This document shows positions 27,324 to 63,895 of a stretch of DNA of 64,000 nucleotides, in pieces (positions within the stretch are counted from its first letter, which is position 1; the number at the start of each line of letters is the position of its first letter). The notes beneath the pieces were generated by a model. That model was given only the letters and a program-made list of their open reading frames with translations. It was not told the origin of the DNA and made no database searches. The position numbers and the translations under genes are program-made. Where the stretch lies: NCBI GenBank assembly GCA_000091205.1, contig AP006493.2; one strand, written 5' to 3'. Source of the DNA: Cyanidioschyzon merolae. Taxonomy: Eukaryota.

Positions 27324-28348
27324 TTATTTCATAAACAGCATATGCATGACAGTGGAGCGCAAAAATATCCGCGAACATGTAAGGTACTTATTTACCCGCG
27401 CACAGACGCCTCCCAGCCTCTTTTGACAGGCCAATTGCTGTCGTTTCAGCTCCTTTTTGTACAATTTGAGTCTGAGAAGCTGGTCGAAAAGGCTGGACCG
27501 CATCAGATCCGCGAGTCTCGGCATCAGCATCGCACATCGTCTGATATCGATGGCGGCGTTCAAGTCTCGGTTCAGAGACTCCATGATTTTATTGACGCTG
27601 GTTGAACTCACCAATGCAATGATTGCTGCGGCCTGTGCACTTTGCGAGACTGCAGTCACGTTATCGGCTCGTCGGGCAGATTCCTTTCCCAGACGATAGC
27701 CACTGTTCGATTGCATCCTCTTCGTCACTCGCGATTTATCGCTGGATGGTCGGCGACGAGAGAATTTTTTGTCGAAATCCGAGATACCGGGCCTCCAGGA
27801 CCCTCAACTTCGATGCCCATAGGCGTCCACTGGATTTTTTATTTCTTCAAAATGAACGCATTTGTTGATTCCCTCAGGTGCGGAGCTTCGCGGAGCAAGA
27901 AGGACCCTCTGAAGAGAGATGCAATGTGCCCTGGTCTGTCAAAGAGTGCTCAAAGCTTCAGCGATTCGCTCAGTTGAACGATCAGTATGTTTTACGATAG
28001 AAAACACTCTTTCGATACGGTTGAATCACGGTGGGCATGTAGGAATGAAAAGCAGCTCTATCCCTAGAGAATGAGCAAACGCACGAGCGCAATCGGACTG
28101 GTCGAGTGCCACATAGTCCAGTTGAAGGATGTCTCCAGATTTCACGTGAAAAGTTCTCAATGATTCGTCAAAGTGGTTTGTGCTGCTGTACGAGCGCTCT
28201 CTACGAGCGAAACTGAGTCCGTTACTTGAATCCAGTGCAGCTCGAACAGAGGACGATGTCGTCGTCCTTTTCGAGTTCGCTCATACACACAACGGGCGCC
28301 CAGCTCCGCGAGTGCCCATATGCGCTCCGACCGTTTCATCCGGAGCAT
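27324..28348 (-). pseudogene. degenerate TnpB/Fanzor-like copy (RuvC-II-like block at about 28.2 kb, RuvC-III block at about 27.5 kb)
   Basis: 28157..28348(-) 'ERIWALAELGARCVYERTRKG' aligns with 'ADRLLAEAINRTKTLVVEFGNG' and 'ADRVLAEDIAQRKRVITHETE' of other copies. 27324..27728(-) 'SVNKIMESLNRDLNAAIDIRRCAML' closely matches the RuvC-III 'HRDLHAAINIRKCAVL' of the 39.5-41.6 kb copy. Confidence 0.4.
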
Positions 28349-34754: not shown

Positions 34755-35029
34755 TAGCCTGATACAATGCCTGACAAAAGCACACGGTGGCTACACTCCA
34801 AGTCGACAACGGTGAACGGACGGAGAACTCCGTCTCCAGCGTTCAGATGCATGATCCATGCACGATCCGACGACGGCGCTGACGGGATTGTGCGCTCGGC
34901 GTATCGCGCTGTACGGCGGCTGCGGAAGCGTCGCGCGCCTGACGCCGCCGCCAGCGCGATACGCCGATTGTTTTTCATTACGAGATGTTTACTTAGGCCA
35001 GCGTTCTCCGATTGAGCGCATTGTTCTTT

Positions 35030-38000
35030 TCTTACTTTTTTGTGTTATTTTTTCAGTGCGCGATAAGGCATCTATAAAACCCCCTCCCTCCAAGTTACAT
35101 ACCCTTTACTGATTCCAGGATATTCTGGTCGTTTCATACGTCCTATCGAGTGTGCCTAGTACCTGCAGTTCCGTATTCGCCTTTGCACCGTACATGCTAG
35201 AGCAGATAGTTCATCGAGCTAGAACGGCGTTGCAGTGCCACACAGAGGACGTCGGCTCGAGGTGTGCTTCACCCGGCGTAGAATCGGGTCTCATTGTCTG
35301 TCTGTGCTCGGACAGTCTGCGGATGCAGGCTTGCCTTCGCTGCCCGACACGCTGGAGAAACTTGGTTGTTAGGATAAATCCTGGGAGCCGCCTCTCTCCT
35401 TCGTGATCTTGCATGGAATGCGTTGTTGTCGGTCGGCAATGCGGGTTTGTGCTTGACACCCACCATAGTGGGTAGGCGCAGAGAGCGCACTGAGCCCGTG
35501 TGCGCATCCGATTCGTTGGACCTTACGCCTAGAAGGTAGCATGTGAGTTTGTTCGCCACTAATGAGCGCTGAGGCTCGGTTAGCGGACCACCAGTTGCCA
35601 GTGCTACACTCAGAGTGAGTGTCCGGCCTTGGACTATCACGGTGATGCCAAGCTGCTGCTGTCCTTCAAGGAGCTCGCTGCGCGGCTGTTTCCAGCGCGG
35701 GCACTGTAAGCCTAAATATGTCAGCGTCTCGGGGGTCTCGTCTCCACAGCAGGGACAGTGTGATTCCCAGTGCGATTCCAGTGTTCCTATACGGCTTAGA
35801 GCCGGTGATGGTCGCCAGAAGCCACCAACGCGGATTTTCGCGAGCCACTGGGTACCTCGAGCAAGTCCCGGGAACTCCAGCGCCTCCCACCAGTACTTGC
35901 GTGTGTATGCTAGGTTGTAGTTCCGATATAGAGTCAAGCTGGCGTTACGGGCCCGACTGGTTCCGTGTCTACGTTCCCATATTGTTGTTTGGACGGTTCG
36001 CTTGAGGCGGCGGGAGCCTTGTACATTCCTGGGGAACGACTGGAGCGTGTTGTCTCCTAAGAGGCGCTTCAGCCAAATCTGCGTCGATTTCATCCAAGTG
36101 TTCTTGCGGCGCGTTGGGGTCTGCATGAAACTCCGACTCAAAGAGGTGCGCATGGTGGGCCCTTTTGGCCCACACACGTGCCTGGCAGCCTGCTGCTATC
36201 GCCTCTATCGAGGGTATTTCGAGTTCAAGTCCGAGTGCCAGGCAGGTTGGTCGCTCTGCTTTGCATTGAGCATCCAACAACAACGAGTCGCATTGCCCTG
36301 TTGGCGGCTGTCTGCAGACGTGAGGCGTTTGTGTGCTTCATGCCGCACCATTCAGCACCACAGGTCGCAGGCTGGATGATACACATCCTTGGTGCGCTGG
36401 TACGGATTGCTAAGCGGATAGAGGGGTCGGATAGGACTGGGCGTGCGATCGCTGTACGTCTGTGCATCTTGGCGATCATCTCGTCGATGTGTGCCTTTTC
36501 GTCGAGCGTCGGCGTGCGACAGACCCTCCAGGTAGCGATATTTTTCCACGATCGGAACTTCCTGATTCTGCAACCGCGACGAGCGATTGCGAATGCTCTG
36601 CGAGTCTCCATGGATGACCGCGACGCCGCACTTCGATGCTGCAATGCTCATCTCCCAGCAATCGGCCCAGGCGCTGACTTGTTCCATGCTAGCCGCAAGC
36701 GTTTCCGGGGCGGGTGCCAACAGCACGACATCGTCCGCAACTAGACGGCCTGCGAGGCGGTTTCTATGTGAGGGCTCCTCATCGGGCATCTCCACAGTTT
36801 ATCCGCGGCACCTCAAGCCCGTATTGTCTGCAGTTGTTCAGCAGATCGTTGATGAAGATGTTGAAAAGGAGCGAGGATGCGCGGTCGCCCTGTCGCAGTC
36901 CACGGCGCATTCTTATCGAAGGGGTTCTTGAGCCGTCGCCCAGTCGGATGCGCATCCATGAGTCTGCATAGAGCGCACGGAAGAACGCCAAGCACTTTTC
37001 GGAGACTCCGCCGCGTTCCATCTTGAGAAATGGAGCCTCGTGCGGGACCGTATCAAAGGCCTTTTGAAAGTCGATGAAGCATACGTAAGTTGGTTGTTGG
37101 CCGCTAATGGAGCGACGTTGCACCACTTCAGTTAGGGTCAGGGCATGGCTCATGCACTCCTCGCGGCTCCGGAATCCATCCTGTTCTGGGGCGAAGAACT
37201 TGCGTTCCTCGAGGCCCCTCTGGATCCAGTTCGTGAGGCTGGCGCAAAGTAGCTTCATGATTGACGGGATGAGGCGCATAGTCCGGTAGTTGCTCACGTC
37301 TGTGTCTGTGGGTTTGGGAGTCCTTTTTTAGGATCGGTACGACCTCGACAGTCCTCGGTACATCCGGGATGTACGCCTCTTCGAACATGCGTTGGATGAG
37401 CTCCAGAAGGCGTTTGCTTAAGATTGTGTCAGGTTCATCTGGTATCGATATTGTCCCTGTTGTCCCGTCTTTTGGGGTCGCCAGTCTCATCCACTCCGCA
37501 GGGATACCGTCGATGCCAGGTGTTTTGCGGTTGCTTGAGCATAGCAGGGTCCGAACAGATTCAGGCCAGAAGATTGGGTCGTTCCATTCCGGTACCGGTT
37601 CGAGGCGCCGTAGTTCCGCAGCATATTGGTGCCGATAGATTCGGTTTTGGCAGTGCCCAGTTGCGTCTTCATGCAGCTCTGGCCCGTGGTCCGTCCAGGC
37701 CTCATTCACTGAGGCACGCTCCGTCCTCAGCGCTTCCTCATAAACGATTGGTGTGAGTCCCAGGCACTTTTTTGGTGGGTCAAGTCTCGATCGAATATAG
37801 CGCCATGTCTCATCTTCGTTGGTGCTCTCTAGCATAGATTTCGCCAGGGAGGCGATTCTGCGGTTTCGATCCTCTCGTTTGTCTTCTCTGGAAAGTTTCT
37901 TCTTTCTTTTGATAGCTTCTTCATGTTGCGCCTGTGGCGCCGGTAGCGCTGCCTTCGCTTCCATGTCTCCGGCGTTTGCGCGTATGGCGGTGCGGTTGAC

Positions 38001-38150
38001 GATCTTGTTAAGTCGGTGGCATTCATCAATTCGAGTTTTGGTACGTCGTTTCAGGTACTGAGGTTTGCAACTGTTGTGTTCTGGTGCAAGCAGTCCCAGC
38101 TCTCCGGCAATCTTCTGATTCCCATCTACAAAATTGCTTCCCAATGGGTT
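35030..38150 (-). mobile_element. non-LTR retrotransposon (LINE), 5'-truncated, no endonuclease domain seen, ORF2 broken by frameshifts; A-rich 3' end on the minus strand at about 35030-35060
   Basis: Minus-strand ORFs in order: 37128..38144 ('KTPGIDGIPAEWMRL', RT domain 0/1), 36779..37297 ('FIDFQKAFDTVPH', 'GLRQGDRASSLLFNIFINDL', RT 2-4), 36352..36795 ('LVADDVVLL', RT 5 / xADD box), 35269..36177 (C-terminal 'HCPCCGDETPETLTYLGLQCPRW', a CCHC-like motif typical of L1/CR1-type ORF2 tails). The plus strand at 35021-35060 is T-rich, i.e. a poly(A)-like tail on the element strand. Confidence 0.7.
36352..38144 (-). pseudogene. LINE reverse-transcriptase coding region, split into three overlapping frames
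   Basis: See the mobile-element entry. RT motifs 0-5 are distributed over ORFs 37128..38144, 36779..37297 and 36352..36795 in different frames. Confidence 0.6.
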
Positions 38151-39495
38151 TAAAGATTTGTATGCACGGCTTTTCGGATCTACAGCGCTGTGAGTAGGTG
38201 ACTGGGTTTGGTGGCAGCTTTCTTGAGTTCCCGCTGGGGGTGCCCTTTCGGGGGATGACTTGTGATGGGCTCGTTTGGGAGTTCTTCTTTCTATTCTTCT
38301 GTTATTTTTTCTTCTTCTTCTTCGGGCTCTTTCCTGAGCTACTTTCTCTGGTTACTCTTCTGGCATGTGGATCATGATGCCATTGTGTCTTTTCTTCTGT
38401 ATCCCGTTGGGCCTTTTTCGCTAATATAGATTCCTCGACTTGTATCAGTTTTTCATTACTGTACTGGTAATTCGATATCTCGTCGTCTAGTATCGAGGCT
38501 ATCCCACAAATATTCCATGATGCGAAACCTATCGAGTCGTAGCGCGTAAGGGAATAAGAATAGCGCTGCGGTACTCCAGAGATACGTTGTCGATTTAGAT
38601 GCACCCTCCACGGGGTGTGTGAACGCACATGCCACCAGCGCCTCCTGCATTCCAGTCGTTCACTGAGTGTCTGCTGCAGCGCTAGCGTAGAATCAGATGT
38701 ACATTAGTCAAGGTCGATTCAAATGCGACCTTTATCTTGCCGGACGTGTGAAGCTACCCGCAACCACAGGGGATACTCTATGAACCACCCTTTCAGCGGC
38801 TTCGTATCCGCTCCCCAAATACACAGGCGGGCAAGTCGCTTACTCCACTTTCGACAGCGAACATGCTGCCAGCCGTCTTCAAAAGTAGCCGCCGAAATTG
38901 TTTCCAAAGTTGAGGTAGCTACCCAAGGTAGGAGGTAAAACTGAGCCCGAGTTCGAGGATGGATCCAGGATTTGCGCCCGAACCTGCAGCGTTGTTTCGG
39001 GAGTGGCGGATGACTACCCAGAACTCTCGTCATCATTCTCTGCTGCTATTGCCGCCGCCATCCGTTCGATGCGGTCAAGGTCCCTGGAGAGGGCTTCCTT
39101 CCTCGTCGCCCGAGCACCCCGCGTTAACCCACTTTCAGAGTTTCTCCGCAAAAACCGGACTTCTTAGGCGCGCATACTGTATGGGGCTTTTAAGATAGTT
39201 GTTCTTTAATAAATAATTTGTTACTAGTTTGCATCACGCTCGGTGAGCGCACCTCGGAGATCCGGCAGGCATGAGACGCTACGCGTATGTCGCCGTTGAA
39301 GGGGAACGCGATCCTGATCTCTAGTATGTAGATCTAATGTAAAAGTTGTATTTTCGTTAACTTCATAGCCAAGTACAGTTTTTCAGTTCGTTTTTGTTTC
39401 AAACTTCATACAAGTCTAGTCAAGTGTTTTTTTGCAGTATATAACAGAAGCGTTCACAGAGCGTTGTTTTCCAAAAAAACTAAAAAAGGAAAGTT

Positions 39496-41570
39496 ATGAA
39501 AACGCAAGTCGACGATCCTGGAGGCCCAGGGTCGCCGGCTGCCAGAAAAAAACAAAAAACAGTACCGAGTCCAGAAGAAAAGAAAGAGAAGAAGAACCGA
39601 AACGGGGACCCAACGTCGAAGGCGACAAGAAAGACGACTTTACGACGAGATGGTGGTGAAAACCTTTCTTCTTGGACATATCAAGGATCCGTACAGGGAA
39701 AAGTTGCGAGACGTTATCGAAATACGTGTCGACTCGTACTCCAAGAGTATTGTCAAGGCGTCGTCAGGACTGATGCATTTGGCGAGGGAGATGTATCGCG
39801 ACGTGACGGACATGGAAACGGTCGAGATTCCAGGCGAGTTCTTCGACAAGGCCTTTATTCGTCACGTGATGCATGGCACAGAGGAAGCGCGGAAGGAAAA
39901 ATGAGCTAGTGCATGCCCACCACGAAAACTTCGCGGAATTCTGCTTCGAGAGTAATCGATACAGCGGTGACGGAAATATTTACACATACGGGGTAATGAA
40001 GTACATTACGAACCTGAAGAACCATTTGACAGAGAACCTCGAACGTTTTATGATACGCGCCGTAGTTGCACTCTACCCGGGCCTCTCTCGCAACGGAAAA
40101 TGGGCGATTATCAATGGCATCAAGAACGATCGATAGTATGAAGATGAGGTCGAATTCGTCGACAAGAAGGCGTCACGCAGGAGCACGAATGAGGATTCCG
40201 TCATCCGCGCGGTTATACAAGAGCACCGTGCGGTACTGGGGTTGGCAAATCCAACAGACAAGATATCAGAGTTGAAAAAAGATAAGGAAAAATACTATCG
40301 CCTCGTCCTGCGCTATTTCGTGTTTCTGGATCGAGAGCTCGAACGCAAGGCGGAAATGAAGCTGAATGTAGAGACAAATGAAGAGTGGGAGAGACGGAAG
40401 GCTTTCCTAATGAGTAAGTGCCTCAGCGTCGTTCCGTTATGCAATATCCAGTCACATTTCGTGATTATCGACTCCACAGTCCTTCATGGCATAATGAGGG
40501 ACATCAGTCCGGTGTTCAATGTTAGCAGGGAGGACTTCACCGGCGAAAATCGGGAGACGTACTAGATGAGTATCTTCGATTTCAAACGTATCAAAGTCAG
40601 CAGGCAAAAGTTGTTCACTAGGATGATCGAAACCGATGGAGTAGCCATGTGTGTACACGATCGGCGGTTGAAGAAAGATCGTCCAGTTCCGCCCTCGGCT
40701 GCGCCCATCACGAAGGATGAAGAAAAGGAACAGGCGGATCCTGTGACGCAGGAGGTGCAGGACAACGACTTTGTTGTTTGCGCGGACCCTGGGAATACGA
40801 ATATCATAACCATTGCAGCACCGAAGCGTGCAGAAGATGGTACTGACGGCAACTTGCGTCAGAAAGACATGCGTCTTTTGAGGTTCTCGAGAGCGAGATA
40901 CTATCGAGAATCCGGTATAATGAATGCGAGGAAGAGAATTGCTGCATGGAATTCAGGAATGAAGGATCACCTGGAAGCTTTGAGCGAGGTGACGAGCCGA
41001 GGAGCGGACTTTGAAGCTTTTCGGAAATTCATGGAAGTTCGCATTGCGCATTGGGATGCGCTATGGGAGGAGTATACCAAGCCCCGGTGGGCTCGTTTGC
41101 GAATGAATCTATACGGTGGGAAGCAGCGGGCGTTCGCGAATTTTTTCAATGAGTTGAGTGCCCTCAAGGAGGATGAAAGTCAGAGGCCCGTAGTAGCATA
41201 CGGAGCAGGGCGCTGGAAGACCCAAAAAGGGACTACTCCAGCTCCAAAGACGAGGGTGTACAAGGAGTGTGCACGGCGTTTTGTTACATTACCTGTAGAT
41301 GAGTTCCGAACGTCCCATACACACCACGAGCTGGATTGTACACTTCAGAGGGTCGAAATGGAAAAGTGCCAGAGGAGCACTGAGGAAATACCAAAGTACG
41401 GTGCGCTGACGGAGGAGCAAATGTAAAGGAGGGCGAAAGTTCGTGGACTACTCGCACTGGTGAGTACAACTCCCAACGGCACGAAACGTATGGAGTTTGT
41501 GCATCGTGACTTACATGCCGCTATCAATATCAGGAAATGTGCGGTGCTGGAGAAAAGACCTCCAGAGTAG
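39496..41570 (+). pseudogene. Fanzor-type (eukaryotic TnpB-like) RuvC nuclease gene, most complete copy; reading frame interrupted by 2 frameshifts and 3 in-frame stops (or unrecognised introns)
   Basis: 39496.. 'MKTQVDDPGGPGSPAARKKQKTVPSPEEKKEKKNRNG' (NLS-like). From 39650 the frame changes twice. The final frame then carries '[18 protein letters not shown]' (RuvC-I, GxDxG-like), 'QRPVVAYGAGRWKTQKG' (RuvC-II region), 'VDEFRTSHTHHELDC...EKCQR' (degenerate Zn finger) and 'MEFVHRDLHAAINIRKCAVL' (RuvC-III). In-frame stops lie at TAG 40134-40136, TAG 40563-40565 and TAA 41424-41426. The last is supported by the ORF track (40242..40565 and 40566..41426 are contiguous, same frame). Confidence 0.65.
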
Positions 41571-41781
41571 ACACGAGAGAGTTTTGTGGGACACCCTCTC
41601 AAAGTGGAACTATATGAGAAGAAGTTGAAACCAGTAGTAGGTGGCCGGTCCAAAACGACGGGGAGGCCTCTGCACGTCAATTGGAGACTTCTTGTCCAGG
41701 GCGCGGTTGCTGCCACTACTGGACACCGCTGGCGTCGTTCGACTTTCGATCGGTGCGCAATCGCGGCAGCGTCTCGACAGT

Positions 41782-41795
41782 CGCGATGCATCGCG
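41782..41795. repeat. 14-bp perfect palindrome (cgcgatgcatcgcg) within GC-rich structured tail downstream of the Fanzor ORF
   Basis: Self-complementary when read directly. Embedded in 'cgcaatcgcggcagcgtctcgacagtcgcgatgcatcgcgtgctttcgattcgagg'. Confidence 0.8.
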
Positions 41796-41925
41796 TGCTT
41801 TCGATTCGAGGATGCCCGGTACCTGACCGGAGAGCACCATAGCAAAACGTTTCGACTGTTTATTCACCTTCCAGGCGTCTGGGTTTGTTCGTGTTTGCGA
41901 TAAATCTAGTGCGAAAAAAATAAAC

Positions 41926-42729
41926 ATGTCACCACAGGATACTTGCTGTCCGCCTGATAGCTGGCCCGCGCTCAAGGTCGACTACAAACCAAAGGGTAAG
42001 CTAGAGGATATCGGGAAAGGCCTGAAGGCGTACGTCGTTGGCAACGGGCCGCGAGCGGTTATCGCACTGAACGATGTATTCGGGATTGAAAGTGGACATT
42101 CAAAGGAAATTTGTGATGCAATTGCGGACAAGGGTTTCACTGTGGTCTTCCCGGACGTATTTCGGGGGAAACCGCTGCAAGTCAGCGATATGAGCAAGCT
42201 ATTCGACGAGCTCCCTGGCTGGGCGAAGCAGTTCGACTACGAGCCGGCTTTGCGTAAGGATGTGGTCGAGGTTATCTTGCCTTATCTCCACGATAAGCTT
42301 GGGTTCAAGAGCAACGACCAGATCGCGCTCGCAGGGTTTTGCTGGGGCGCGTTCATGTTATTCCACCTGGCAGGCGATACGAAGCTTCCCGGTGGGCCGT
42401 TTGCCTGCGGTGTCTCGTTCCATCCCAGTGTCCAGATTGAGGGCGTCTTTCAGCGGGATCCGCTGCAATTGATCGATCGGGCAACTTGCCCGCAGCTTCT
42501 GCTTCCCTCTGCAGGCGAGCCAGATTATATGAAGGAGGAAGGGGACGCGATCAAGAAGCTTCGAGCGAAGCCTTTCGGAGCTAGCTGCGGGGTGAAGACT
42601 TTCCCGAGCATGCAGCACGGCTGGGTGAACCGTGGAGACCGGAATGATCCGCAGGTTGTGAAGGAGGCTCAGGAAGCCCTTCAACTTGCAGTTGATTTCA
42701 TGATGCGACACACGAAGCCGAAAGCATGA
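41926..42729 (+). CDS. dienelactone hydrolase family protein (carboxymethylenebutenolidase-like alpha/beta hydrolase)
   Basis: 'AVIALNDVFGIESGHSKEICDAIADKGFTVVFPDVFRG' and nucleophile elbow 'LAGFCWGAFM' (G-x-C-x-G, DLH-type Cys nucleophile), with a downstream His in 'MQHGW'. 267 aa. Confidence 0.65.
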   Translation: MSPQDTCCPPDSWPALKVDYKPKGKLEDIGKGLKAYVVGNGPRAVIALNDVFGIESGHSKEICDAIADKGFTVVFPDVFRGKPLQVSDMSKLFDELPGWAKQFDYEPALRKDVVEVILPYLHDKLGFKSNDQIALAGFCWGAFMLFHLAGDTKLPGGPFACGVSFHPSVQIEGVFQRDPLQLIDRATCPQLLLPSAGEPDYMKEEGDAIKKLRAKPFGASCGVKTFPSMQHGWVNRGDRNDPQVVKEAQEALQLAVDFMMRHTKPKA

Positions 42730-43456
42730 GCTAGAAACACACGACGTATGAGCGGCTTCGTCGTGGGCCAACTGCATGAGCTGGATGACGACTTTGCAGA
42801 TGCAAATTGAGTCTCTCTCTCTATAGGACCTGTATTTGCCACGGTGTAAAGGACAGTTGCATGAAATCTCGAGTCGCACCGATAAGCACATCGCAAATCC
42901 ATTCGGTTTCTTGGGATGTAGCGTTGTTCAGACGGTCCAGGGAGCCTCGGAAGCGCGACGGAACTCGCTATCCTGGCGAGCATCCATCATGCCGCATCGG
43001 ATTCTCCGAGTTCCACGAGGCCCAGCCCAGACTTCCCTTCGGAGATAATGGTCCGTTCATGCGATTCACAGGCTGCAGAGCCTGTCGTGAGCGCCCGAAA
43101 CGACGCCCGTTGCGTCAATATGATCGTTGTACGGATAGAGAGTGACTTTGCCGTACCCTGGTGGGCGTCGGCTCGATGAATCCACCTGTTGCGGATGCAC
43201 TGTCGATCGATAGGCACTTGGCCAGTCATTCGATCTGGAGCGTCCCGTAGGCGTTGCATACAGGCTTCGTACTCGCGTGCAGTGCACTTGATCCGCAACC
43301 GTCTCCATCCGAGTGCAGGGGCCTGCACATGTGGTCTGGTACCGAATTGCAGAGCGCCTTCAAGAACGCATATTATAAAAGGCGCTGGTAGAGGCGCAGG
43401 CTCTTCGCTTTCTGCGATAAAACATAAGCACTCTACTGGTCTACTAGAGACAGCGT

Positions 43457-48181: not shown

Positions 48182-49822
48182 TCAACGTGTTGGCTGGGCT
48201 CCAGCCGGTTCTGTGATGCGGGATGGAGTGTGCCGTTCGGGCGGCACTTGAATGCGCTCCAATCCAGCGAGAAACGGTCGAAGCACTTGCGGAATCGTAA
48301 CCGAACCGTCTTTTTCCTGAAAGTTTTCCAGAATAGACACAATCATCCGAGGCACTGCGCAGGCAGTCGCGTTGAGTGTATGCACGAAGCGCAGTTTTTC
48401 CGAAACCTGCTCTCTGTATCGGATATTCAGACGCCGGGCCTGGTAGTCGGTGCAGTTGCTTGCACTGCTGATTTCGCCAAAGGCGTTGCGACCCGGCATC
48501 CAGGCCTCAATATCAAATTTGCGATAGGCCGGGTTTCCCAGTTCCCGAGTCGGCATGTCGAGCACCCGATAATGGAGACCAAGTGCATCGAAAAGCTCCT
48601 CCTCGATAGATCGAAGCTCCTGATGAACTCGATCGCTTTCCTCTGGTCTTGAAAGCACGAACATTTCCACTTTGGTGAATTGATGGACTCGATACAGACC
48701 GCGCGTCTCGGTGCCGGCAGCACCGGCTTCACGACGGAAACAGTGACTGACGGCTGCCATCTTGATCGGAAGCTGCGTCTCGTCGAGTATCTCGTTCGCA
48801 TAATATCCCCCAAGCGGTATTTCCGCTGTGCCCGCCAGGCATAACGAGGTATCTGCCACCGAATATACTTGAGACGCTTCGCCGCGGGGCTGGAATCCGC
48901 AACCCCAAACCGTTTCCTCGCGCACAAGGTCGGGTGCGATCAGAGGTATGAAACCGTGCTTACCGGTAAGGTGCTGCATTGCCCAGTTCACCAACGCCAG
49001 CTCGAGCATTGCCCCTGCATTGCGAAGAAAATAGAAGCGCGCCCCAGCTACTTTGGCGGCGGCCTCGAAATCCACTATATCAAGTCGCTGCGCCAACTCC
49101 ACATGGTCTTTCGGCGAAAAGTCTGTAAAATCACGAGGCTTGCCCGCCATTCTCAAGAGTCGGGCTTGATCCTCGCCGCCTACAGGAGCATCAGGATGGG
49201 TCCGGTTGGGTATCCGTACTGCTTCTGCATAGAGTTGTTGCTCGGTCTCGGCAAGTTCAGCCTCAAGCGCAGTCACTCGCTCTTTCAACTGCTTACCAAG
49301 TGCGATACACTCGGAGCGCTCCTCAGGCGAGAGCTTCTGCATATTCTTCATGCGGGCTGCCACCTCGTTGCGCTGTTTTCGGACTAGATCCACCTCCGCC
49401 GTAAGCGCGCAGAAACGCTCATACAGCTGCACTACAAGGGTGGCGTTGACGTCGACTCCGCGCCGCTGGATATTCTCCTGGACCTGCGCCAAGTGATCTC
49501 GTACGTACCGAAGGTCGACCGGTGGCGGCGTGCCAGACACTCGCGTCAGCATCATGTTTGTTGGAGTAGCGCAACGGCTATCAGAATGTCGACAACGAAA
49601 CGCACTGGGTCGGAAACTGGTGCCGTCACCGAGCCAGCCTCGCATTCGGTACGGACGCGTTGCCCGTGCCTCCGCAATGGACCCGGCAACTGCTGGATAG
49701 CCAGTACGAAGCACTCGCAACCAGTTCCCTGCTGATTGGATCCATCGCATTCTCTTTCTTAAACCTATCGAATGTACGAAGGAGGTGAGCGATCTTTCCT
49801 CGCCTCCACGAGCAGGTTCCAT
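48182..49822 (-). CDS. seryl-tRNA synthetase (class II); ORF carries about 90-aa N-terminal extension, probable true start at about 49555
   Basis: N-terminal coiled-coil arm 'VDLRYVRDHLAQVQENIQRRGVD...'. Class II motifs 'FRREAGAAGTETRGLYRVHQFTKVEMF' (motif 2) and 'GRNAFGEISSASNCTDYQARRL...TLNATACAVPRMIVSILEN' (motif 3). Confidence 0.8.
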   Translation of the reverse strand: MEPARGGEERSLTSFVHSIGLRKRMRWIQSAGNWLRVLRTGYPAVAGSIAEARATRPYRMRGWLGDGTSFRPSAFRCRHSDSRCATPTNMMLTRVSGTPPPVDLRYVRDHLAQVQENIQRRGVDVNATLVVQLYERFCALTAEVDLVRKQRNEVAARMKNMQKLSPEERSECIALGKQLKERVTALEAELAETEQQLYAEAVRIPNRTHPDAPVGGEDQARLLRMAGKPRDFTDFSPKDHVELAQRLDIVDFEAAAKVAGARFYFLRNAGAMLELALVNWAMQHLTGKHGFIPLIAPDLVREETVWGCGFQPRGEASQVYSVADTSLCLAGTAEIPLGGYYANEILDETQLPIKMAAVSHCFRREAGAAGTETRGLYRVHQFTKVEMFVLSRPEESDRVHQELRSIEEELFDALGLHYRVLDMPTRELGNPAYRKFDIEAWMPGRNAFGEISSASNCTDYQARRLNIRYREQVSEKLRFVHTLNATACAVPRMIVSILENFQEKDGSVTIPQVLRPFLAGLERIQVPPERHTPSRITEPAGAQPTR

Positions 49823-49825
49823 GGC

Positions 49826-51297
49826 TCACCACCCAGCGCTACAGCTTCTGGTGCACTGCAACAGCTTCTGGTGCACTGCAACAGCTTCTGGTGCACTGCA
49901 ACAGCTTCTGGTGCACTTCAACAGCTTCTGGTGCACTTCAACAGCTTCTGGTGCGAAGCGCAAGCACGAAGGGCGCTTGTACTGAGCGTTCGCCGGCGAT
50001 GATCCGGGGCGCCGGCACGCCGCATGAAGAGGTGCTCGGGTGGATCGCGGGATACTGCACCTATGGCTGGAGTGGGGATCTGACGCCCGTGAAAGAAATT
50101 GGACCTGCATAACCACCCAGACGTTATAGATGAGGACAACGATACATGTTTGATGGCCATGGAGGGTGAATATGTATGTATTTACGCGCAGAGGCCTCGC
50201 AGCCTTTTTTGACTGGCCGCCTTCGATCAGTTTCAGCTTCTCGTTGTATCCGATGAGCCTGAGAGGCTGCCCAACCAAGTCACATCGCGTCAGCTCTTGG
50301 GGTATCGTTTTCAGCACCGCACATAGCCTGATATTGAGTACAGCGTTAAAATCCCGGTTCACGAACATCTCGCGTTTATAGCCTCTGTTAGAACGCGCCA
50401 TTGCAAAGAAAGCTGGAACTCGTGCCCTCATTGCCATTTGGTGCTCAGTCAGCTCTCTGTCATTTTCTATCGCACAAGCGATCCACTGGCGTGTCTCTAT
50501 GCCGGCCGTCTGAAGTGCATATGCCCGCTCGTCCCAGAGATTTTTTAATCTTTGAAAGCGGCCGCACTTGTACACACCCATAGGTGAGGAACTTCTCGGA
50601 AAGACAAGGATTTACGCAGGATAGACGAAAGATGCTTCGGTGCTACCGTGGTGGAAGCTTTTGCGATTCGCCCATCGGAGCTATTATGATATGTGTCATG
50701 ATAGAAAACGCTCCTTCTATAGATATGGACCTCGGAGCCTAAGGAGGAATGAAAAGCAGCTCTGTCCCCGATAGAATCAGCAAAAGCTCGAAAGAGAATG
50801 TTGAAAGGCCACGGTGTCCAATAGATGCACGTCGCAAGAAGTCAGAGAACAATCTTCCATGATTCGACGAGTTGGGAGCTAATGTATACGCCCTCTCTAC
50901 GAGAGAAACTGAGGCCGACAAATGCATCTACCAAAGTTCGAACAGATGATGATGTCGGTGCTCTCTTCGAGTTCGTTGTACGTACAAAGAACTCCGTCTC
51001 TGCGAATACCCGTATACGCTTCGACCGTCTCATCCGAGGAAAGTATGATCGACTGAAAAAAAACAACCGACGTTCCTGTGCTTCATGCAGATCGCAACGT
51101 TCCAGGAACACTAGAGTTGCGATTTCGATGGACCATGACCGGGTGTGAACCAGGACTCTTTTTATGCGACTGTATCCGAGTGCTTTCAGGGCTGCACGAA
51201 CAAGATCTTGAGAATCAGAAATGCCACTGCTGGCTATGATCATCGCTTTCGCTTTTCTTACGATGATCAACGGGTCGTTTTCTACCATTGACCGCAA
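49826..51297 (-). pseudogene. degenerate TnpB/Fanzor-like copy (RuvC-II-like block at about 51.1 kb, zinc-finger remnant and RuvC-III block at about 50.3 kb)
   Basis: 50842..51297(-) 'VRAALKALGYSRIKRVLVHTRSWS' (RuvC-II-like). 49826..50581(-) 'GVYKCGRF...REMFVNRDFNAVLNIRLCAVLK' (RuvC-III). The antisense-frame signature 'STAHSLILSTALKSRFTNI' (50166..50381+) matches the antisense of the 39.5-41.6 kb copy ('STAHFLILIAACKSRCTN'). Confidence 0.4.
49841..49953. repeat. 20-bp minisatellite (acagcttctggtgcactgca) x about 5.5
   Basis: Units align exactly with the 10-base print groups, with the last copies c->t variants. Lies between the SerRS ORF and the TnpB-like remnant. Confidence 0.9.
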
Positions 51298-55480: not shown

Positions 55481-56916
55481 CAGGAGCCGATGCTGGCGAG
55501 CGGTCGCCTACAAACCGCCACACAGACGGCGTCGTTCCTCACCTCATCCTGCGTTGAAACATTTCGAGGCTTCTCCATCGCGCTTGCTGATGCCCTGTCC
55601 TTGGACAGCGCCGCCTAGCACAGCACGGGAGAAGCACCGGCGTACGCATCTGGGATTCGTGTTCAGCTGCTCTTTGTAGCAGTTTGTTTTCCGCGGCCTC
55701 ATCCAGCGGCATGCGGCCTGTCTCTGCGTCGCCAACAACCGTTTCTACGCCCACGGACACGTTTCGAAAACACGACTCGCTCGCGTCCCCGGCACCGAGA
55801 CAAGCCGGACGCCGTGAGCGATAGCGTAGCACCGTCCCCGAGAGACTCTCGCCTCCTTGATGGACGTCGCGTCCGAATGGTCGCTGAACCGTGATGCCTG
55901 GCTTCCCGGCATCTCGCGCTACTCCGTTTCCGTAAATAGCGCTGGGCAGCGCATACCAGACTGCCTCCGGGAACGTGAGCGCCCCCCGCTCCCTCAACAG
56001 TCTAGTGGATATGGTCCATGGTTACGAGACCAGGACCCATGAGGGTACCCGCTGAGACACTCTTTGTCGCGTGTGGCCTTCCTGGTGCGCGATGCCCGGT
56101 CTATCTACGCAGCAACCAGGACACATTCGTACTGCTCCGCAGCGGGCATCGGCCGAGCTCGTCCAAGCTCTTTCGCCTACGCGCTCGGAGCCCAAAGACG
56201 TTTACAGCGACCACGGACACTGACCGAATATCACTTTGGATGTGCTCTGTGAGACCCAGGCCTGCGTCTCGAAACAGGACTCGATTTACGCCCATAGAGA
56301 TAGATGAAGAGCAAGTATTCAGGGCGGGCGTGGATCCCGAGTTCGAGTGCGTCACGACTGCCGCCGTGCCTCCAGCCCAGCGGGGCAGAACCGGCGATCA
56401 GCACCGCGAGCAGGTGTCGCTGCTCAGCCTGCTCCACGACTCGGTACCAGCGGGCGTCGTGCACCACACACACACCAGGAGGCGTACCAGCAGGTGCAGT
56501 GACTACCTCAGGGGCTATCTCGGCAATCAAAGCATCCTATCGAGCAGCGGCGGATGCTTCGTGCAGTGCACTCAGAGCGCCTATACGAGCGTCCGAATGC
56601 AGCACGCGGACGCTTTTCGACACAGGTACATGACACCGTGCTGCTGTCGCCAATGGCATCGATTGTGCGGAGCCAAGGAGCGTACATCCACACCGCCTAG
56701 TTCGGTGCGTCGGAAACGGGAATCATCGACGAGGCGCGCGGTATGCCTGAAACCTCTGGTACGGGGTGTGCTTTTGGAGCACACGGGCTGCACTCGTGCT
56801 CCTTCGATGCGAGCGTGCGACAGGCACAAGAATCGATTCCGTACAGATCCCGTCGACGAATGCACGACAACATACAAGTATCACGAACTGGGGTTCAGCC
56901 TAATCCAGTTCGAGAA

Positions 56917-57100
56917 GAAAAAGAGCATGAAACAGAGATCAATGCACGGGATGGTGTACGGGACGCCGAACGAACGTCAGATGGCGACAGCGTCAAAGTT
57001 CGGTGACCTCGTAGAGCCTGAAACAGAGACCAATGCACCAGGTGGTGTACGGGACGCCGAACGAACGTCAGATGGCGACAGCGTCAAAGTTCGGTGACCT
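56917..57100. repeat. 87-bp tandem duplication (2 units) inside repeat copy 1
   Basis: 'atgcac..ggtgtacgggacgccgaacgaacgtcagatggcgacagcgtcaaagttcggtgacctcgt' occurs twice consecutively, giving duplicated ORF text 'GVRDAERTSDGDSVKVR'. Confidence 0.8.
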
Positions 57101-61289: not shown

Positions 61290-63895
61290 AGTTGTGCATC
61301 TGGATATAATTATACAACTATATCCTATTTGTTTCCGTTCGTGTTCGCACAGGCACTCAATGCCCGGCACGCACCGCGAACGACTGGAGCACTGTCGCGC
61401 ACAGCTCTGATGCTGGCAAAGATAGCTCGCGATACGCCGCATTATTTCTACAAAGCAGTCATTCTATGGTCACTACGACAATACACCGCCTGTATCGTTA
61501 TCGGTATCCTGAACATCGTGCGCCCGCACCAAAACACGTTCAACAATCTCTACGCAACTGCCTACTCGCCAAGCCATTCCAGCTTATGCCTTCTCGAAGG
61601 AATGCCGCGCAACAGGCGCCAGCATCTGAGGTTCGCGTACCGTTGCATCGCACGACGACAACGAGACATTGAGGGTCAGCGCAGAAGGCAGGTTTCTGTG
61701 CGAGACCGTCGCGCTGCGCACATGACGCCGTCAATGGCGTCCCTCAAGGAGCATACATATCCCAGAAGCGACAGGAGTTCACCTCGCTCGATTCCAGTCC
61801 ACGACGGGAGCACTGCTTGGCCTGTATGCAGGCAACCAAAACGTGGCAATCCGCTATTCGCAAGGAAGCGACATGCGCGTACGACAAAAAGAACAGCACC
61901 AACAACAACAGCGGCAGCAGCAGCAGCAGCCCAGGAGCCGATGCTGGCGAGCGGTCGCCTGCAAACCGCCACACAGACGGCGTCGTTCCTCACCTCATCC
62001 TGCGTTGAAACATTTCGAGGCTTCTCCATCGCGCTTGCTGATGCCCTGTCCTTGGACAGCGCCGCCTAGCATAGCACGGGAGAAGCACCGGCGTAGGCAT
62101 CTGGGATTCGTGTTCAGCTGCTCTTTGTAGCAGTTTGTTTTCCGCGGCCTCATCCAGCCGCATGCGGCCTGTCTCTGCGTCGCCAACAACCGTTTCTACG
62201 CCCACGGACACGTTTCGAAAACACGACTCGCTCGCGTCCCCGGCACCGAGACAAGCCGGACGCCGTGAGCCAGAGCGTAGCACCGTCCCCGAGAGACTCT
62301 CGCCTCCTTGATGGACGTCGCGTCCGAATGGTCGCTGAACCGTGATGCCTGGCTTCCCGGCATCTCGCGCTACTCCGTTTCCGTGAATAGCGCTGGGCAG
62401 CGCATACCAGACTGCCTCCGGGAACGTGAGCGCCCCCCGCTCCCTCAACAGTCTAGTGGATATGGTCCATGGTTACGAGACCAGGACCCATGAGGGTACC
62501 CGCTGAGACACTCTTTCTCGCGTGTGGCCTTCCTGGTGCGCGATGCCCGGTCTCTGTACGCAGCAACCAGGACACATTCGTACTGCTCCGCAGCGGGCAT
62601 CGGCCGAGCTCGTCCAAGCTCTTTCGCCTACGCGCTCGGAGCCCAAAGACGTTTACAGCGACCACGGACACTGACCGAATATCACTTTGGATGCGCTTTG
62701 TGAGACACAGGCCTGCGTCTCGAACCAGGACTCGATTTACGCCCATAGAGATAGATGAAGAGCAAGTATTCAGGGCGGGCGTGGATCCCGAGTTCGAGTG
62801 CGTCACGACCGCCGCCGTGCCTCCAGCCCAGTAGGGCAGAGCCAGCGATCAGCACCGCGAGCAGGTGTCGCTGCTCAGCTTGCTCCACGACTCGGTACCA
62901 GCGGGCGTCGTGCACCACACACACCAGGAGGCGTACCAGCAGGTGCAGTGACTACCTCAGGGGCTATCTCGGCAATCAAAGCATCCTATCGAGCAGCGGC
63001 GGATGCTTCGTGCAGTGCACTCAGAGCGCCTATACGAGCGTCCGAATGCAGCACGCGGACGCTTTTCGACACAGGTACATGACACCGTGCTGCTGTCGCC
63101 AATGGCATCGATTGTGCGGAGCCAAGGAGCGTACATCCACACCGCCTAGTTCGGTGCGTCGGAAAAGGGAATCATCGACGAGGCGCGCGGTATGCCTGAA
63201 ACCTCTGGTACGGGGTGTGCTTTTGGAGCACACGGGCTGCACTCGTGCTCCTTCGATGCGAGCGTGCGACAGGCACAAGAATCGATTCCGTACAGATCCC
63301 GTCGACGAATGCACGACAACATACAAGTATCACGAACTGGGGTTCAGCCTAATCTAGTTCGAGAAGAAAAAGAGCATGAAACAGAGATCAATGCACGGGA
63401 TGGTGTACGGGACGCCGAACGAACGTCAGATGGCGACAGCGTCAAAGTTCGGTGACCTCGTAGAGCCTGAAACAGAGACCAATGCACCAGGTGGTGTACG
63501 GGACGCCAAACGAACGTCAGATGGCGACAGCGTGTAAGGTCGGTGACCTCGTTTGGTGCGAATGTGCCAGCACCTAGGCGCCCAGGCTCTTTCCATACTG
63601 CGACTTGAGCCGCTCGATCAACACTCGAAAGCGAGTCTTGGTTTGAGTCGAGCGAGCTTTCGACGCAGTCGTTCAGTACTCAGTATCGGTGCGCTGCTGA
63701 AACGCTGATGACGCTCGATGGAAAACTCAGTGGTCAGCAGAGAGGGAGTTGGATTCCAGACTGGAGCAAGGCACTGGTATGGTGCGGTTGGGAAATCCCG
63801 CAATGCGAGAGCGGCTTGGGTATGCTCTGAAGACGATGTTCTTTGCCAACAAGCGAACGATAATGATGCTCCTTTATTTGATGTTCGGTTGTCTA
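61290..63895. repeat. 2.6-kb dispersed direct repeat, copy 2 (includes 87-bp tandem at about 63368-63550)
   Basis: Collinear with 54840..57450. Similarity begins at 'ataattatacaactatatcctatttgtttccg' and ends at 'taatgatgctcc(g/t)ttatt(c/t)gatgttcg', and flanks on both sides are unrelated. Confidence 0.85.

Follow-up and report, generated by a model that had tools for sequence, protein, structure and literature searches.

Organization of the Locus

The window analyzed here is a 64,000-nucleotide stretch of the red alga Cyanidioschyzon merolae (contig AP006493.2, assembly GCA_000091205.1), and three neighboring proteins match C. merolae 10D chromosome 11 entries exactly. The features of interest occupy less than 8 kb (Table 1). 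From left to right these are a short terminal module, the body of a non-LTR retrotransposon on the minus strand, a core made up of a 5′ leader, a Fanzor1 pseudogene and a short non-coding right end, a stretch of intergenic host DNA, and a dienelactone-hydrolase gene. Five other remnants of the element, all diverged, are also found inside the window.

Table 1. Features of the CMe-1A locus. Positions are those of the window; basis gives the evidence for each assignment
Feature	Position	Strand	Basis
Left terminal module, resembling TE-N2_CMe	34971–35538	+	nhmmer profile of the ~650-bp 5′ module from eight copies, E 2.5e-38
Decayed non-LTR retrotransposon body, frameshifted, non-functional	35272–39230	−	Pfam RVT_1
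CMe-1A core common to all copies	39231–41757	+	blastn and end alignments
Fanzor1 pseudogene, ancestral ORF span	39496–41699	+	Three-frame translation, alignment to P0001–P0063, consensus stop from 36 aligned tails
K/R-rich, NLS-like, probably disordered N-terminus (MKTQVDDPGGPGSPAARKKQKTVPSPEEKKEKKNRNGD)	39496–39609	+	Translation; P0047 counterpart pLDDT <50
75-bp unit, acidic lysine-rich repeat	40711–40785	+	Repeated blastn pieces
RuvC-I catalytic Asp codon (ADPG)	40785–40787	+	Alignment column D74, nearly invariant in family
RuvC-II strand VVAYGAGRW, Gly (41202–41204) at canonical Glu position	41193–41219	+	Family alignment
Candidate relocated catalytic Glu (VDEFRT)	41301–41303	+	Motif position in alignment, not superposition
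RuvC-III catalytic Asp codon (HRDLHAAINI; family consensus NRDFNAAINI)	41508–41510	+	Translation, family alignment
Decayed ORF end	41571–41699	+	In-frame homology to other copies
Putative omega RNA scaffold remnant, damaged in window copy	41632–41757	+	Predicted folds
Scaffold long-range helix, CAGTAGTAGG with CCACTACTG	41632–41641 / 41713–41721		Predicted fold
Scaffold hairpin A	41663–41671 / 41685–41693		Predicted fold
Scaffold hairpin B	41700–41714		Predicted fold
Conserved non-coding element end with hairpins	41700–41757	+	Shared by copies
Scaffold terminal hairpin	41732–41742 / 41746–41756		Predicted fold
Single-copy host intergenic DNA, outside element	41758–41925		Sequence absent from other copies
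Dienelactone-hydrolase gene, downstream neighbor	41926–42729		Exact match to C. merolae BAM80483

The Element and Its Family

The core belongs to CMe-1A, the main dispersed repeat of C. merolae. Its Fanzor identity, family, host, and copy number have been known since 2013, when Bao and Jurka (Mob DNA 4:12) described ~150 copies of a ~3-kb unit with ~80% identity to the consensus. These authors equated the 5′ 635 bp with TE-N2_CMe, noted the lack of TIRs, and left the transposon class of both elements open. The assignment made here follows that published description (host, copy number, divergence, and unit length) rather than an alignment to the Repbase consensus itself. The likeness extends to ~80% identity among copies, a ~650-bp 5′ module that also exists alone, the absence of TIRs and of identifiable TSDs, and ORFs that are mostly truncated. 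Judging from size and abundance, CMe-1A is probably also the novel interspersed repetitive element of 3.2 kb with truncated ORFs of which Nozaki et al. (2007) found 253 copies in the finished genome.

The boundaries of the core are sharp. When the window is compared with 80 related loci by blastn, homology begins at 39231 (39231–39247) and stops at 41749–41753 in copy after copy, at 79–89% identity, and comparison of the consensus '...GAACGGCGTT' with the mutated sequence of the window copy refines the right end to 41757. Canonical units measure 3.2–3.3 kb. In metagenome contigs, 378 related stretches occur, placing the feature far beyond chance. TIRs were not found at the two ends, which resemble each other weakly (ACAAAACGTTT versus ACAAACGTCTTT) around a palindromic ACGT core, and inspection of 16 complete units revealed no TSDs. 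A sequence of ~1.5 kb shared upstream of the copies at L039 and L072 was rejected as part of the element, being host genes at an orthologous locus. The core is invariably preceded by (C)ATCG or AGCG, and right flanks often begin G(T/A)TGGTG.

Fold and Active Site

Searches with the pseudogene product returned 63 homologous proteins (P0001–P0063; E from 0 down to 2e-50), including intact relatives of 600–700 amino acids whose alignments cover 90–95% of the query. The profile search that a sequence-only reading of this DNA had proposed as a check gave a divided answer. The repaired window translation has no match in Pfam or NCBIfam, OrfB_IS605 and OrfB_Zn_ribbon included, and neither phmmer nor a family HMM finds a match among PDB sequences. 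Neither the window translation nor its close relatives match the Cas12f1-like_TNB profile (PF07282), which is found solely in the distant member P0056, above the Pfam threshold (29.0 versus 26.3 bits). With no profile match at the sequence level for the copy itself, membership in Fanzor1 rests on fold, motifs, and this one distant homologue.

The direct link to Fanzor1 comes solely from structure prediction and Foldseek. An AlphaFold model of P0047, an intact relative with 40% identity (pLDDT 81.7, pTM 0.73), has Fanzor1 structures as its seven best PDB matches (SpuFz, PpFz, and GtFz; E 3e-17 to 4e-16, TM 0.53–0.71), followed by Cas12f at E ~1e-4. A model of the window's own ORF at 40566–41423 (286 amino acids, pLDDT 68.9) likewise has SpuFz and GtFz as its top five matches, with SpuFz first (E ~2e-6, 21% identity). 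By these matches, the family has the overall REC/WED/RuvC/NUC fold of solved Fanzor1 proteins.

The motifs agree with the fold. The lysine-rich, NLS-like N-terminus noted from the letters alone is present, being K/R-rich from the ATG at 39496, and NLS acquisition by Fanzors has been described (Jiang et al. 2023). RuvC-I and RuvC-III (VHRDLHAAINIRKCAV) were also correctly recognized, and both Asp columns are conserved family-wide. Between RuvC-II and RuvC-III lies a degenerate His/Cys region, as claimed for a degenerate zinc finger; the Zn-ribbon cysteines are replaced by a mix of His and Cys. Just upstream of RuvC-I, the 75-bp unit is present once in the window and two to five or more times in other copies (blastn against 40710–40785), and the repeat is expanded in P0001, P0005, and P0009.

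The absence of Glu from RuvC-II had been read as either a rearranged catalytic site or a sign of inactivation, and the family alignment favors the former. Gly at this position is the normal state across the family. Jiang et al. (2023) report that Fanzors replace the RuvC-II Glu by Pro or Gly and that all have an alternative conserved Glu ~45 residues downstream, a relocation shared with TnpB2, a subset of TnpB. The candidate counterpart here is the Glu of VDEFRT, 33 residues past the RuvC-II Gly, and E246-F247-R248 is nearly invariant in the family alignment. By motif position, the window copy thus appears to have the rearranged site, with Gly for the RuvC-II Glu and a conserved Glu downstream.

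As a whole, the locus is best explained as a decayed CMe-1A copy of the Fanzor1 family on chromosome 11, whose ancestor was presumably an RNA-guided nuclease; we put the probability of this reading at about 0.88. The ancestral active element encoded a protein of ~735 amino acids with a K/R-rich, nuclear-localization-like N-terminus, the REC/WED/RuvC architecture of Fanzor1, and a rearranged RuvC site that combines the Asp residues of ADPG and NRDxNAA with the candidate relocated Glu of VDEFRT, the RuvC-II Glu having given way to Gly. By analogy with TnpB and characterized Fanzor1 proteins, this protein would have worked with a bound guide RNA.

The Left Module and Its Reverse Transcriptase

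In the window, the core forms the right-hand side of a composite of 6.8 kb (34971–41757) in which a dead reverse-transcriptase gene separates the left module from the Fanzor gene. RVT_1 matches the stitched minus-strand translation of the intervening segment at E 7.3e-21, and the segment is 83–93% identical to P0104, annotated in C. merolae as 'retroelement, alive' and, like P0103, an intact reverse-transcriptase gene of this alga. Canonical CMe-1A has the module and the core directly joined, whereas here they are 3.7 kb apart, so that the window copy is a structural variant of CMe-1A. The same composite, with different internal deletions, is found at L001 and L027, both of which share the left end of the window copy, and among the related loci compared the reverse-transcriptase sequence occurs only in the window and at L027. 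Read on the minus strand, the left module comprises the 3′ UTR of the reverse-transcriptase element and the final stretch of its coding sequence, with a short A-rich tail at its end; left ends carry T runs of 4–8 nucleotides, read as A runs on the minus strand. In a few copies the right end is missing from variable points onward, but these are too few to judge. That the left module is, in inverted orientation, the 3′ end of this genome's non-LTR retrotransposon may be a new observation.

Should the reverse-transcriptase segment have entered an older CMe-1A copy merely as an unrelated, nested LINE, it would be irrelevant to the spread of the Fanzor gene. Insertions of this kind are common in repeats, and the canonical unit, with its ~650-bp left module joined to the core, carries no reverse-transcriptase gene. 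However, the left module shows homology to the 3′ UTR and C-terminal coding end of the reverse-transcriptase element, whose last ORF (35272–36195, minus strand) runs unbroken across the module boundary. The composite also occurs at at least four loci with different right flanks and 86–88% identity, and at L001 and L027 the copies seem to have arisen by internal deletion, with both ends retained. On balance, a nested insertion falls somewhat short of an even chance.

A further proposal is that CMe-1 elements are chimeras, in which a Fanzor gene is joined to a non-LTR retrotransposon, and that they spread by target-primed reverse transcription via an antisense RNA. In a LINE-like unit with TE-N2_CMe as its 3′ end, the Fanzor gene would occupy the 5′ part in antisense orientation, and canonical CMe-1A copies would be deletion derivatives that lost the reverse transcriptase and were copied in the same way as the whole unit. 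This arrangement would account for the lack of TIRs and of detectable TSDs, and for an element that is A-rich at its left end and sharply bounded at its right. We nonetheless regard it as unlikely. The chimera, if real, would be the first RNA-guided nuclease carried by a retroelement, an association not found in the Fanzor literature searched. The finding on the left module offers a testable hypothesis for how a Fanzor without a transposase reached ~5% of a very compact genome.

The Right End and a Candidate Guide RNA

The sequence-only reading treated the GC-rich 355 bp at 41571–41925 as a single candidate guide-RNA tail, which does not hold. This tail has three parts: ~129 bp of decayed coding sequence, ~58 bp of element terminus, and ~168 bp of host DNA, so that about half of it is single-copy flank. 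The palindrome reported within it does exist, a perfect 14-nucleotide one (CGCGATGCATCGCG, 41782–41795), but it sits in the unique host flank rather than in the element. The tail was rightly said to run into the next host gene.

In Fanzor1 elements the guide RNA occupies the stretch from the stop codon to the right end or extends across the stop codon. That of SpuFz1 has a 75-nucleotide scaffold and a 15-nucleotide guide, and that of GtFz1 overlaps the ORF by 17 amino acids. At the equivalent position in CMe-1A, predicted folds make a family guide-RNA scaffold plausible at ~41632–41757. The same predicted architecture recurs in the window, L035, L031, and L010 and in part in L013 and L045, although the individual fold z-scores are modest, ranging between -1.1 (window) and -3.2. 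For most of 36 tails the minimum-energy fold is the terminal hairpin, and among 13 tails of the same type 79% of stem cells pair, compared with 37–51% in slid controls.

Other indicators are negative. Compensatory covariation was not found in the 13 same-type tails (score 0.101 versus a shuffle mean of 0.107), a test that is low in power because differences among copies are mostly post-insertion decay. The tail shows no excess 3′-end conservation of the kind expected from an overlapping RNA; mean pairwise identity is a little lower in the tail (0.70–0.81) than in the ORF (0.82–0.87). RNAalifold did not recover the hairpins from the 36-tail alignment, in which MAFFT places two hairpin versions out of register, and a column-wise helix scan of the tails was too noisy for use. 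Rfam gave no match, either for the whole window at the gathering threshold or for 41300–42000 at a permissive one, and no tRNAs were found. Folding the tails, as had been suggested, thus yields recurrent predicted stems in several copies with neither covariation nor an Rfam match.

In the ancestral element, the guide RNA would derive from the last 90–125 nucleotides, overlapping the final ~20 codons and bearing the terminal hairpin at its end; its start would be expected near the CAGTAGTGG motif. The guide itself would be the 15–20 nucleotides of flanking DNA past '...GGCGTT', and matching DNA would be cut. If an RNA was ever made from the window locus, its guide would be just the first 15–20 nucleotides of 41758–41925. 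The defined right end and the ~90–125-nucleotide candidate scaffold make the guide RNA of this abundant red-algal Fanzor testable with existing C. merolae RNA-seq.

Alternatively, the terminal hairpins may act in DNA or in a transposition intermediate as mobility signals, either as enzyme recognition sites or as the 5′-terminal part of a template for retrotransposition, rather than as a guide-RNA scaffold. Hairpins are found at both ends of the core, CGCTCGGTGAGCG at 39231 and the terminal hairpin at 41732–41756. The latter exists in two versions, GCGTCGTTCGA-CTT-TCGAACGGCGT and ACGTTTTTC-TTTT-GAAAGACGT, both of which hold a stem exactly at the element end. The covariation and excess conservation expected of a long structured RNA are absent, the element has no TIRs or detectable TSDs, and its left module is a retroelement 3′ end. 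On the other hand, this is precisely where characterized Fanzor1 and TnpB systems encode their guide RNAs. Furthermore, a stem-loop followed by ACUGUA is also present in the tails of Tc1/mariner-borne relatives, whose TIRs for transposition are separate. The two roles are compatible rather than exclusive, as the TnpB right end serves both. A role in mobility instead of guidance is less likely than not, and a putative guide-RNA scaffold is the reading kept here.

Decay of the Window Copy

The locus had been described as a near-complete Fanzor-type gene. Homologues and fold confirm a Fanzor-type RuvC nuclease gene in a eukaryotic genome, but the frame is not continuous and the window copy has no intact ORF. 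Frameshifts occur near 39610–39620 and near 39900, and premature in-frame stops are found at 40134 (TAG), 40563 (TAG), 41424 (TAA), and 41568 (TAG). Beyond the last of these, in-frame homology to other copies runs on to the family stop position, as read from 36 aligned tails, where the ancestral TAG has become CAG in the window copy (41697–41699). Given the two frameshifts and four premature stops, and with disrupting substitutions in the tail hairpins, this copy is a dead pseudogene member of Fanzor1 that cannot act as a nuclease or make a guide RNA.

That the gene is functional, its interruptions being introns, programmed frameshifts, or stops read as sense, is highly improbable: all three catalytic-motif residues are kept and TAG accounts for three of the four internal stops, but introns occur in only 0.5% of C. 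merolae genes (Nozaki et al. 2007, Table 2), other copies are gapless and uninterrupted across the broken positions, the ancestral stop codon is gone, the window copy is ~15–20% diverged from its relatives along its entire length, non-coding parts included, and nearly all 80 sampled copies are likewise broken, at differing places. An alternative genetic code or readthrough was rejected, as host genes in the window terminate with TGA, TAG, and TAA alike.

Relation to Other RNA-guided Nucleases

Among solved Fanzor1 proteins, SpuFz1 (8GKH, 9CEU–9CEZ), GtFz1 (9CER), and PpFz (9CF0/1) resemble the CMe-1A family over the whole length of the fold (E ~1e-17, TM up to 0.71 for the P0047 model) and share the rearranged RuvC site and a disordered basic N-terminus. 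Sequence identity is merely 12–21%, and the Zn-ribbon cysteines of the CMe-1A family are degenerate. The solved proteins use a guide RNA encoded at the right end of the element, where it adjoins the stop codon or overlaps it; the CMe-1A counterpart is putative. SpuFz1 elements have 30-nucleotide inverted repeats, whereas CMe-1A has none.

The TnpB proteins of IS200/IS605 and IS607 (OMEGA) are also RuvC nucleases, with a guide RNA from the gene 3′ end and the element right end, to which the putative CMe-1A RNA would correspond. Their elements are similar in having subterminal hairpins and no TIRs or TSDs. CMe-1A differs in its eukaryotic host, larger protein, and basic N-terminus, and no ORF for a TnpA, either Y1 HUH or serine recombinase, was found near the element.

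Fanzor1 relatives carried by Tc1/mariner elements in salt-pond and other metagenomes offer a further comparison (proteins P0046–P0049, P0052, and P0058; loci L002–L007 and L088–L094). They fall in the same protein clade, with 30–41% identity over 90–95% of the length and the same motifs, and have a comparable non-coding tail with the stem-loop and ACUGUA noted above. In contrast to CMe-1A, their ORFs are intact, a DDE_3 transposase gene precedes several of them on the same strand (L002–L005, L089, L091, and L094), and several have ~30-bp terminal repeats ending in TA. Their tail of 125–200 nucleotides lies wholly after the stop codon, whereas the CMe-1A ORF extends ~35 codons into the tail. 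The helix in the non-coding tails of these relatives shows some compensatory changes.

Identity and Decay of the Fanzor Gene

Every motif that the sequence-only reading named for this locus is seen in a three-frame translation of 39400-42000 (Table). That reading also took the gene to be near-complete, which it is not: its motifs are spread over more than one open frame, with two frameshifts (near 39610-39620 and again near 39900) and four in-frame stops in the nuclease-core frame (TAG 40134, TAG 40563, TAA 41424, and TAG 41568). The longest unbroken piece is 286 residues (40566-41426), and the window copy is a pseudogene. A variant genetic code gives no rescue of the frame, because TGA, TAG, and TAA all end host ORFs in the window, and was rejected. 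A 75-bp coding unit just 5' of RuvC-I (40711-40785), whose product is an acidic, lysine-rich repeat, differs in copy number among elements, from one in the window to at least five elsewhere (proteins P0001, P0005, and P0009; loci L001, L014, and L067).

Table. Features of the Fanzor locus and its surroundings (window coordinates)
Feature	Position	Strand	Size	Evidence or remark
Decayed non-LTR retrotransposon	34971-39230	-		RVT_1, E 7e-21; head-to-head with Fanzor core
K/R-rich N-terminus, CMe-1A gene	from ATG 39496	+		translation
RuvC-I motif, CMe-1A gene		+	15 residues	translation
VVAYGAGRW, then His/Cys-containing stretch, CMe-1A gene		+		translation
VHRDLHAAINIRKCAV motif, CMe-1A gene		+		translation
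Decayed coding sequence	41571-41699		129 bp
True non-coding terminus of element	41700-41757		58 bp
Single-copy host intergenic DNA	41758-41925		168 bp
Dienelactone hydrolase gene	41926			exact C. merolae 10D match
Seryl-tRNA synthetase gene	48182-49822			exact C. merolae 10D match
CMK101C	58054			exact C. merolae 10D match

The protein family is best recognized by fold. The window translation has no relevant match in Pfam, NCBIfam, or PDB (phmmer), nor does a family HMM find one among PDB sequences. A protein search recovered 63 homologues, of which ∼45 are fragments from hot-spring metagenomes (54-86% identical) and ∼18 are ∼410-710 residues long (29-41% identical), most of these being full-length with 90-95% of the query aligned. 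One distant member, P0056, scores above the Pfam threshold for the Cas12f1-like TNB (OrfB zinc-ribbon) domain; the others give only weak DUF8286 matches. Profile HMMs thus fail for the window copy and succeed only through a distant homologue. For the intact relative P0047, AlphaFold gave a confident model from the family alignment (pLDDT 81.7, pTM 0.73). Compared with solved structures, this model finds Fanzor1 complexes in all seven top places (S. punctatus, P. parasitica, and G. theta; E 3e-17 to 4e-16, TM up to 0.71 across the whole length), with Cas12f matching far more weakly. For the window's own 286-residue fragment (model pLDDT 68.9), SpuFz and GtFz rank first (E ∼2e-6, 21% identity). 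These matches clearly support a Fanzor RuvC domain, bear out the earlier Fanzor-type assignment, and place the window gene in Fanzor1.

The Y/G at the RuvC-II Glu position had been read as either a rearranged catalytic site or inactivation. In the family alignment the ADPG Asp, VDEFRT, and NRDxNAA are nearly invariant, and Gly occupies the canonical Glu position in all members. Fanzors generally have Pro or Gly here, with an alternative Glu ∼45 residues downstream (Jiang et al. 2023). Y/G is therefore the family norm, which upholds the rearranged site, and it is not the cause of the window copy's inactivation. The alternative Glu of CMe-1A is most likely, judging from the alignment, that of VDEFRT (41301-41303), 33 residues downstream.

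A single Fanzor1 family, CMe-1A, is listed for C. merolae, with ∼150 copies each ∼80% identical to a ∼3-kb consensus, some of them intact; it lacks TIRs, its TSDs were undetermined and its transposon class unknown, and its 5' 635 bp share 95% identity with another repeat, TE-N2_CMe (Bao and Jurka 2013). A 3.2-kb interspersed repeat, reported earlier in 253 copies whose ORFs are truncated and which amount to ∼5% of the genome (Nozaki et al. 2007), is very probably the same element, given its size and abundance. The present survey agrees with these descriptions: 378 related stretches in a handful of metagenomes, copies 79-89% identical to that of the window, canonical units of 3.2-3.3 kb, and hardly any intact ORFs among 80 loci. 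The element is a Fanzor1 family already published from a model alga and holds little discovery value. What it retains is twofold: a candidate guide-RNA scaffold that is now defined, and a connection of CMe-1A/TE-N2_CMe to a non-LTR retrotransposon that can be put to the test.

The Right End and a Candidate Guide RNA

All copies share the span from 39231 to 41749-41753. When the ends are aligned, the element closes on the right with the consensus '...GAACGGCGTT', whose mutated counterpart in the window ends at 41757; beyond it each copy has different DNA. The family ORF continues in frame past TAG 41568 (…TRENFVGQPLKVELYEKKLEAVVGGRSKKTGRRLHVSWRRLV) to a family stop TAG, mutated in the window to CAG at 41697-41699. 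The 355-bp stretch once read as a single non-coding guide-RNA tail therefore splits into three unlike parts, and decayed ORF and host DNA make up most of it.

Folding of the consensus right end predicts a structure that recurs in most of the tested copies that are better preserved. In it, two hairpins sit inside a long-range helix (CAGUAGUGG/CCACUACUG): hairpin A (GAGGCGUCU…AGACGUCUU), located in the final codons, and hairpin B (GGCGGG-UUU-CUCGCC), directly 3' of the stop codon; a linker and a terminal hairpin that stops at the element boundary follow. Minimum-energy folding yields this terminal hairpin in most of 36 non-redundant tails, and it exists in two sequence versions, each with a perfect stem. 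In size (90-125 nt), position, and overlap with the last ∼20 codons, the candidate matches the guide RNAs of SpuFz1, a 75-nt two-stem scaffold plus 15-nt guide, and GtFz1, which overlaps 17 codons of the ORF. Less favorably, tail conservation is slightly below that of the ORF, and Rfam gave no match to the tail. In a set of 13 tails of the same type, 79% of stem cells pair versus 37-51% in shifted controls; the score for covariation is no different from the shuffle mean, with most changes breaking pairs, the pattern that dead copies decaying neutrally would give, so that the test has little power. The odds that the family encodes a guide-RNA scaffold at 41632-41757 are put at about even. In the window copy the tail folds with z = -1.1, the terminal hairpin carries four substitutions, and the candidate scaffold is non-functional.

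Intact relatives borne on Tc1/mariner-like elements, several with a DDE_3 transposase gene and several ending in TA-flanked terminal repeats, have 125-200-nt tails 3' of the stop codon. These tails contain two helices, an outer one and CAG…CUGUA, plus an inner hairpin with a stem that varies in sequence among lineages; the outer helix is recovered by RNAalifold, some double changes included. Such tails speak for a scaffold. Several of these relatives (L003, L088-L095) also share a motif, (C)ATCTATATA / CTCTTATA(C/T), on the right side 25-35 nt before the terminal repeat, past the structured part of the tail.

The single-copy DNA that separates the element from the dienelactone-hydrolase start codon contains a perfect 14-nt palindrome, CGCGATGCATCGCG (41782-41795). 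Right after '...GGCGTT', many independent copies (L001, L032, L035, L040, L042, L067, L069, and L081) have G(T/A)TGGTG or TGGTGGTG before diverging, and another set (L010, L025, L027, L033, and L070) has TGTTTCCAGGGGT. These shared starts would mean either that the element extends slightly, by a few bases, beyond the end set here or that insertion sites are non-random.

The Left Side and a Possible Retroelement Link

The core starts sharply at 39231, and the DNA preceding it varies by copy group. In the canonical group a ∼650-bp left module directly abuts the core; in the window the left-module profile matches 34971-35538 (E 2.5e-38), away from the core, and the gap between the two holds a minus-strand, frameshifted reverse-transcriptase gene. 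This reverse transcriptase is 83-93% identical to a C. merolae protein annotated 'retroelement, alive'. The last retroelement ORF (35272-36195) extends into the left module, the ∼300-nt 3' UTR equals the first ∼270 module positions, and the 3' ∼570 bp of the retrotransposon are homologous to the ∼650-bp 5' module of canonical CMe-1A. Read on the minus strand, the unit terminates in a short run of A whose length varies. By sequence comparison, the TE-N2_CMe-like module thus seems to be the 3' end, in inverted orientation, of the genome's non-LTR retrotransposon; if so, these Fanzor elements may spread via retrotransposition of an antisense transcript.

The composite with the retroelement 5' part occurs at no fewer than four loci with differing right flanks. 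Two loci, L001 (window [34971-36242]+[39231-41749]; retroelement part at L001 8403-9668) and L027 (window [34972-35266]+[37440-end]; retroelement part at L027 2594-4669), look like internal-deletion forms with the same two ends as the window composite. No TSDs are visible in 16 complete units. A serious alternative to spread by retrotransposition is that the retroelement is a simple nested insertion.

Whatever the upstream context (left module in either orientation, retroelement 5' end, or other DNA), the bases just 5' of the core are (C)ATCG, ATCA, or AGCG, as compared at the 39230/39231 junction and its equivalents in L001, L014, L027, L039, L080, L082, and others. They may represent a target or TAM-like motif, or else the core may truly begin with them; as set here, the core opens with a small hairpin, CGCTCGGTGAGCG. 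A solitary TE-N2_CMe-like fragment lies just 3' of the dienelactone-hydrolase gene (42935-43182, plus strand; nhmmer E 1e-19, profile positions 32-273). Units with only the first ∼270 profile positions recur at L071 and L077-L080 and suggest a distinct short element that arose from the retroelement 3' UTR.

Neighboring Genes and Other Fanzor Remnants

Three neighboring proteins match entries from the 852,849-bp chromosome of the well-studied red alga Cyanidioschyzon merolae 10D exactly (BAM80483, BAM80485, and BAM80487), which identifies the host. The 64-kb window holds six Fanzor-derived pieces in total. A second, more diverged Fanzor1-like copy retains a C-terminal part (49826-50581, minus strand; REMFVNRDFNAVLNIRLCAV…GQPLRLIGYNEKLKLIEGGQSKKAARPLRVN) with 65% DNA identity to 41326-41681; its ORF is in frame with the seryl-tRNA synthetase start (49822), separated by one TGA and one codon. 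Strongly diverged remnants at 56066-57061 and 62827-63462 (plus strand; tblastn E 2e-12 and 2e-8) lie within a direct duplication (55500-about 57100 versus 61951-about 63500) with a spacing of about 6.45 kb and 99-100% identity in sampled 300-nt blocks. Weak Fanzor-like remnants are found at 13659-14443 (plus strand; tblastn E 5e-11) and 27507-27614 (minus strand; E 2e-4).
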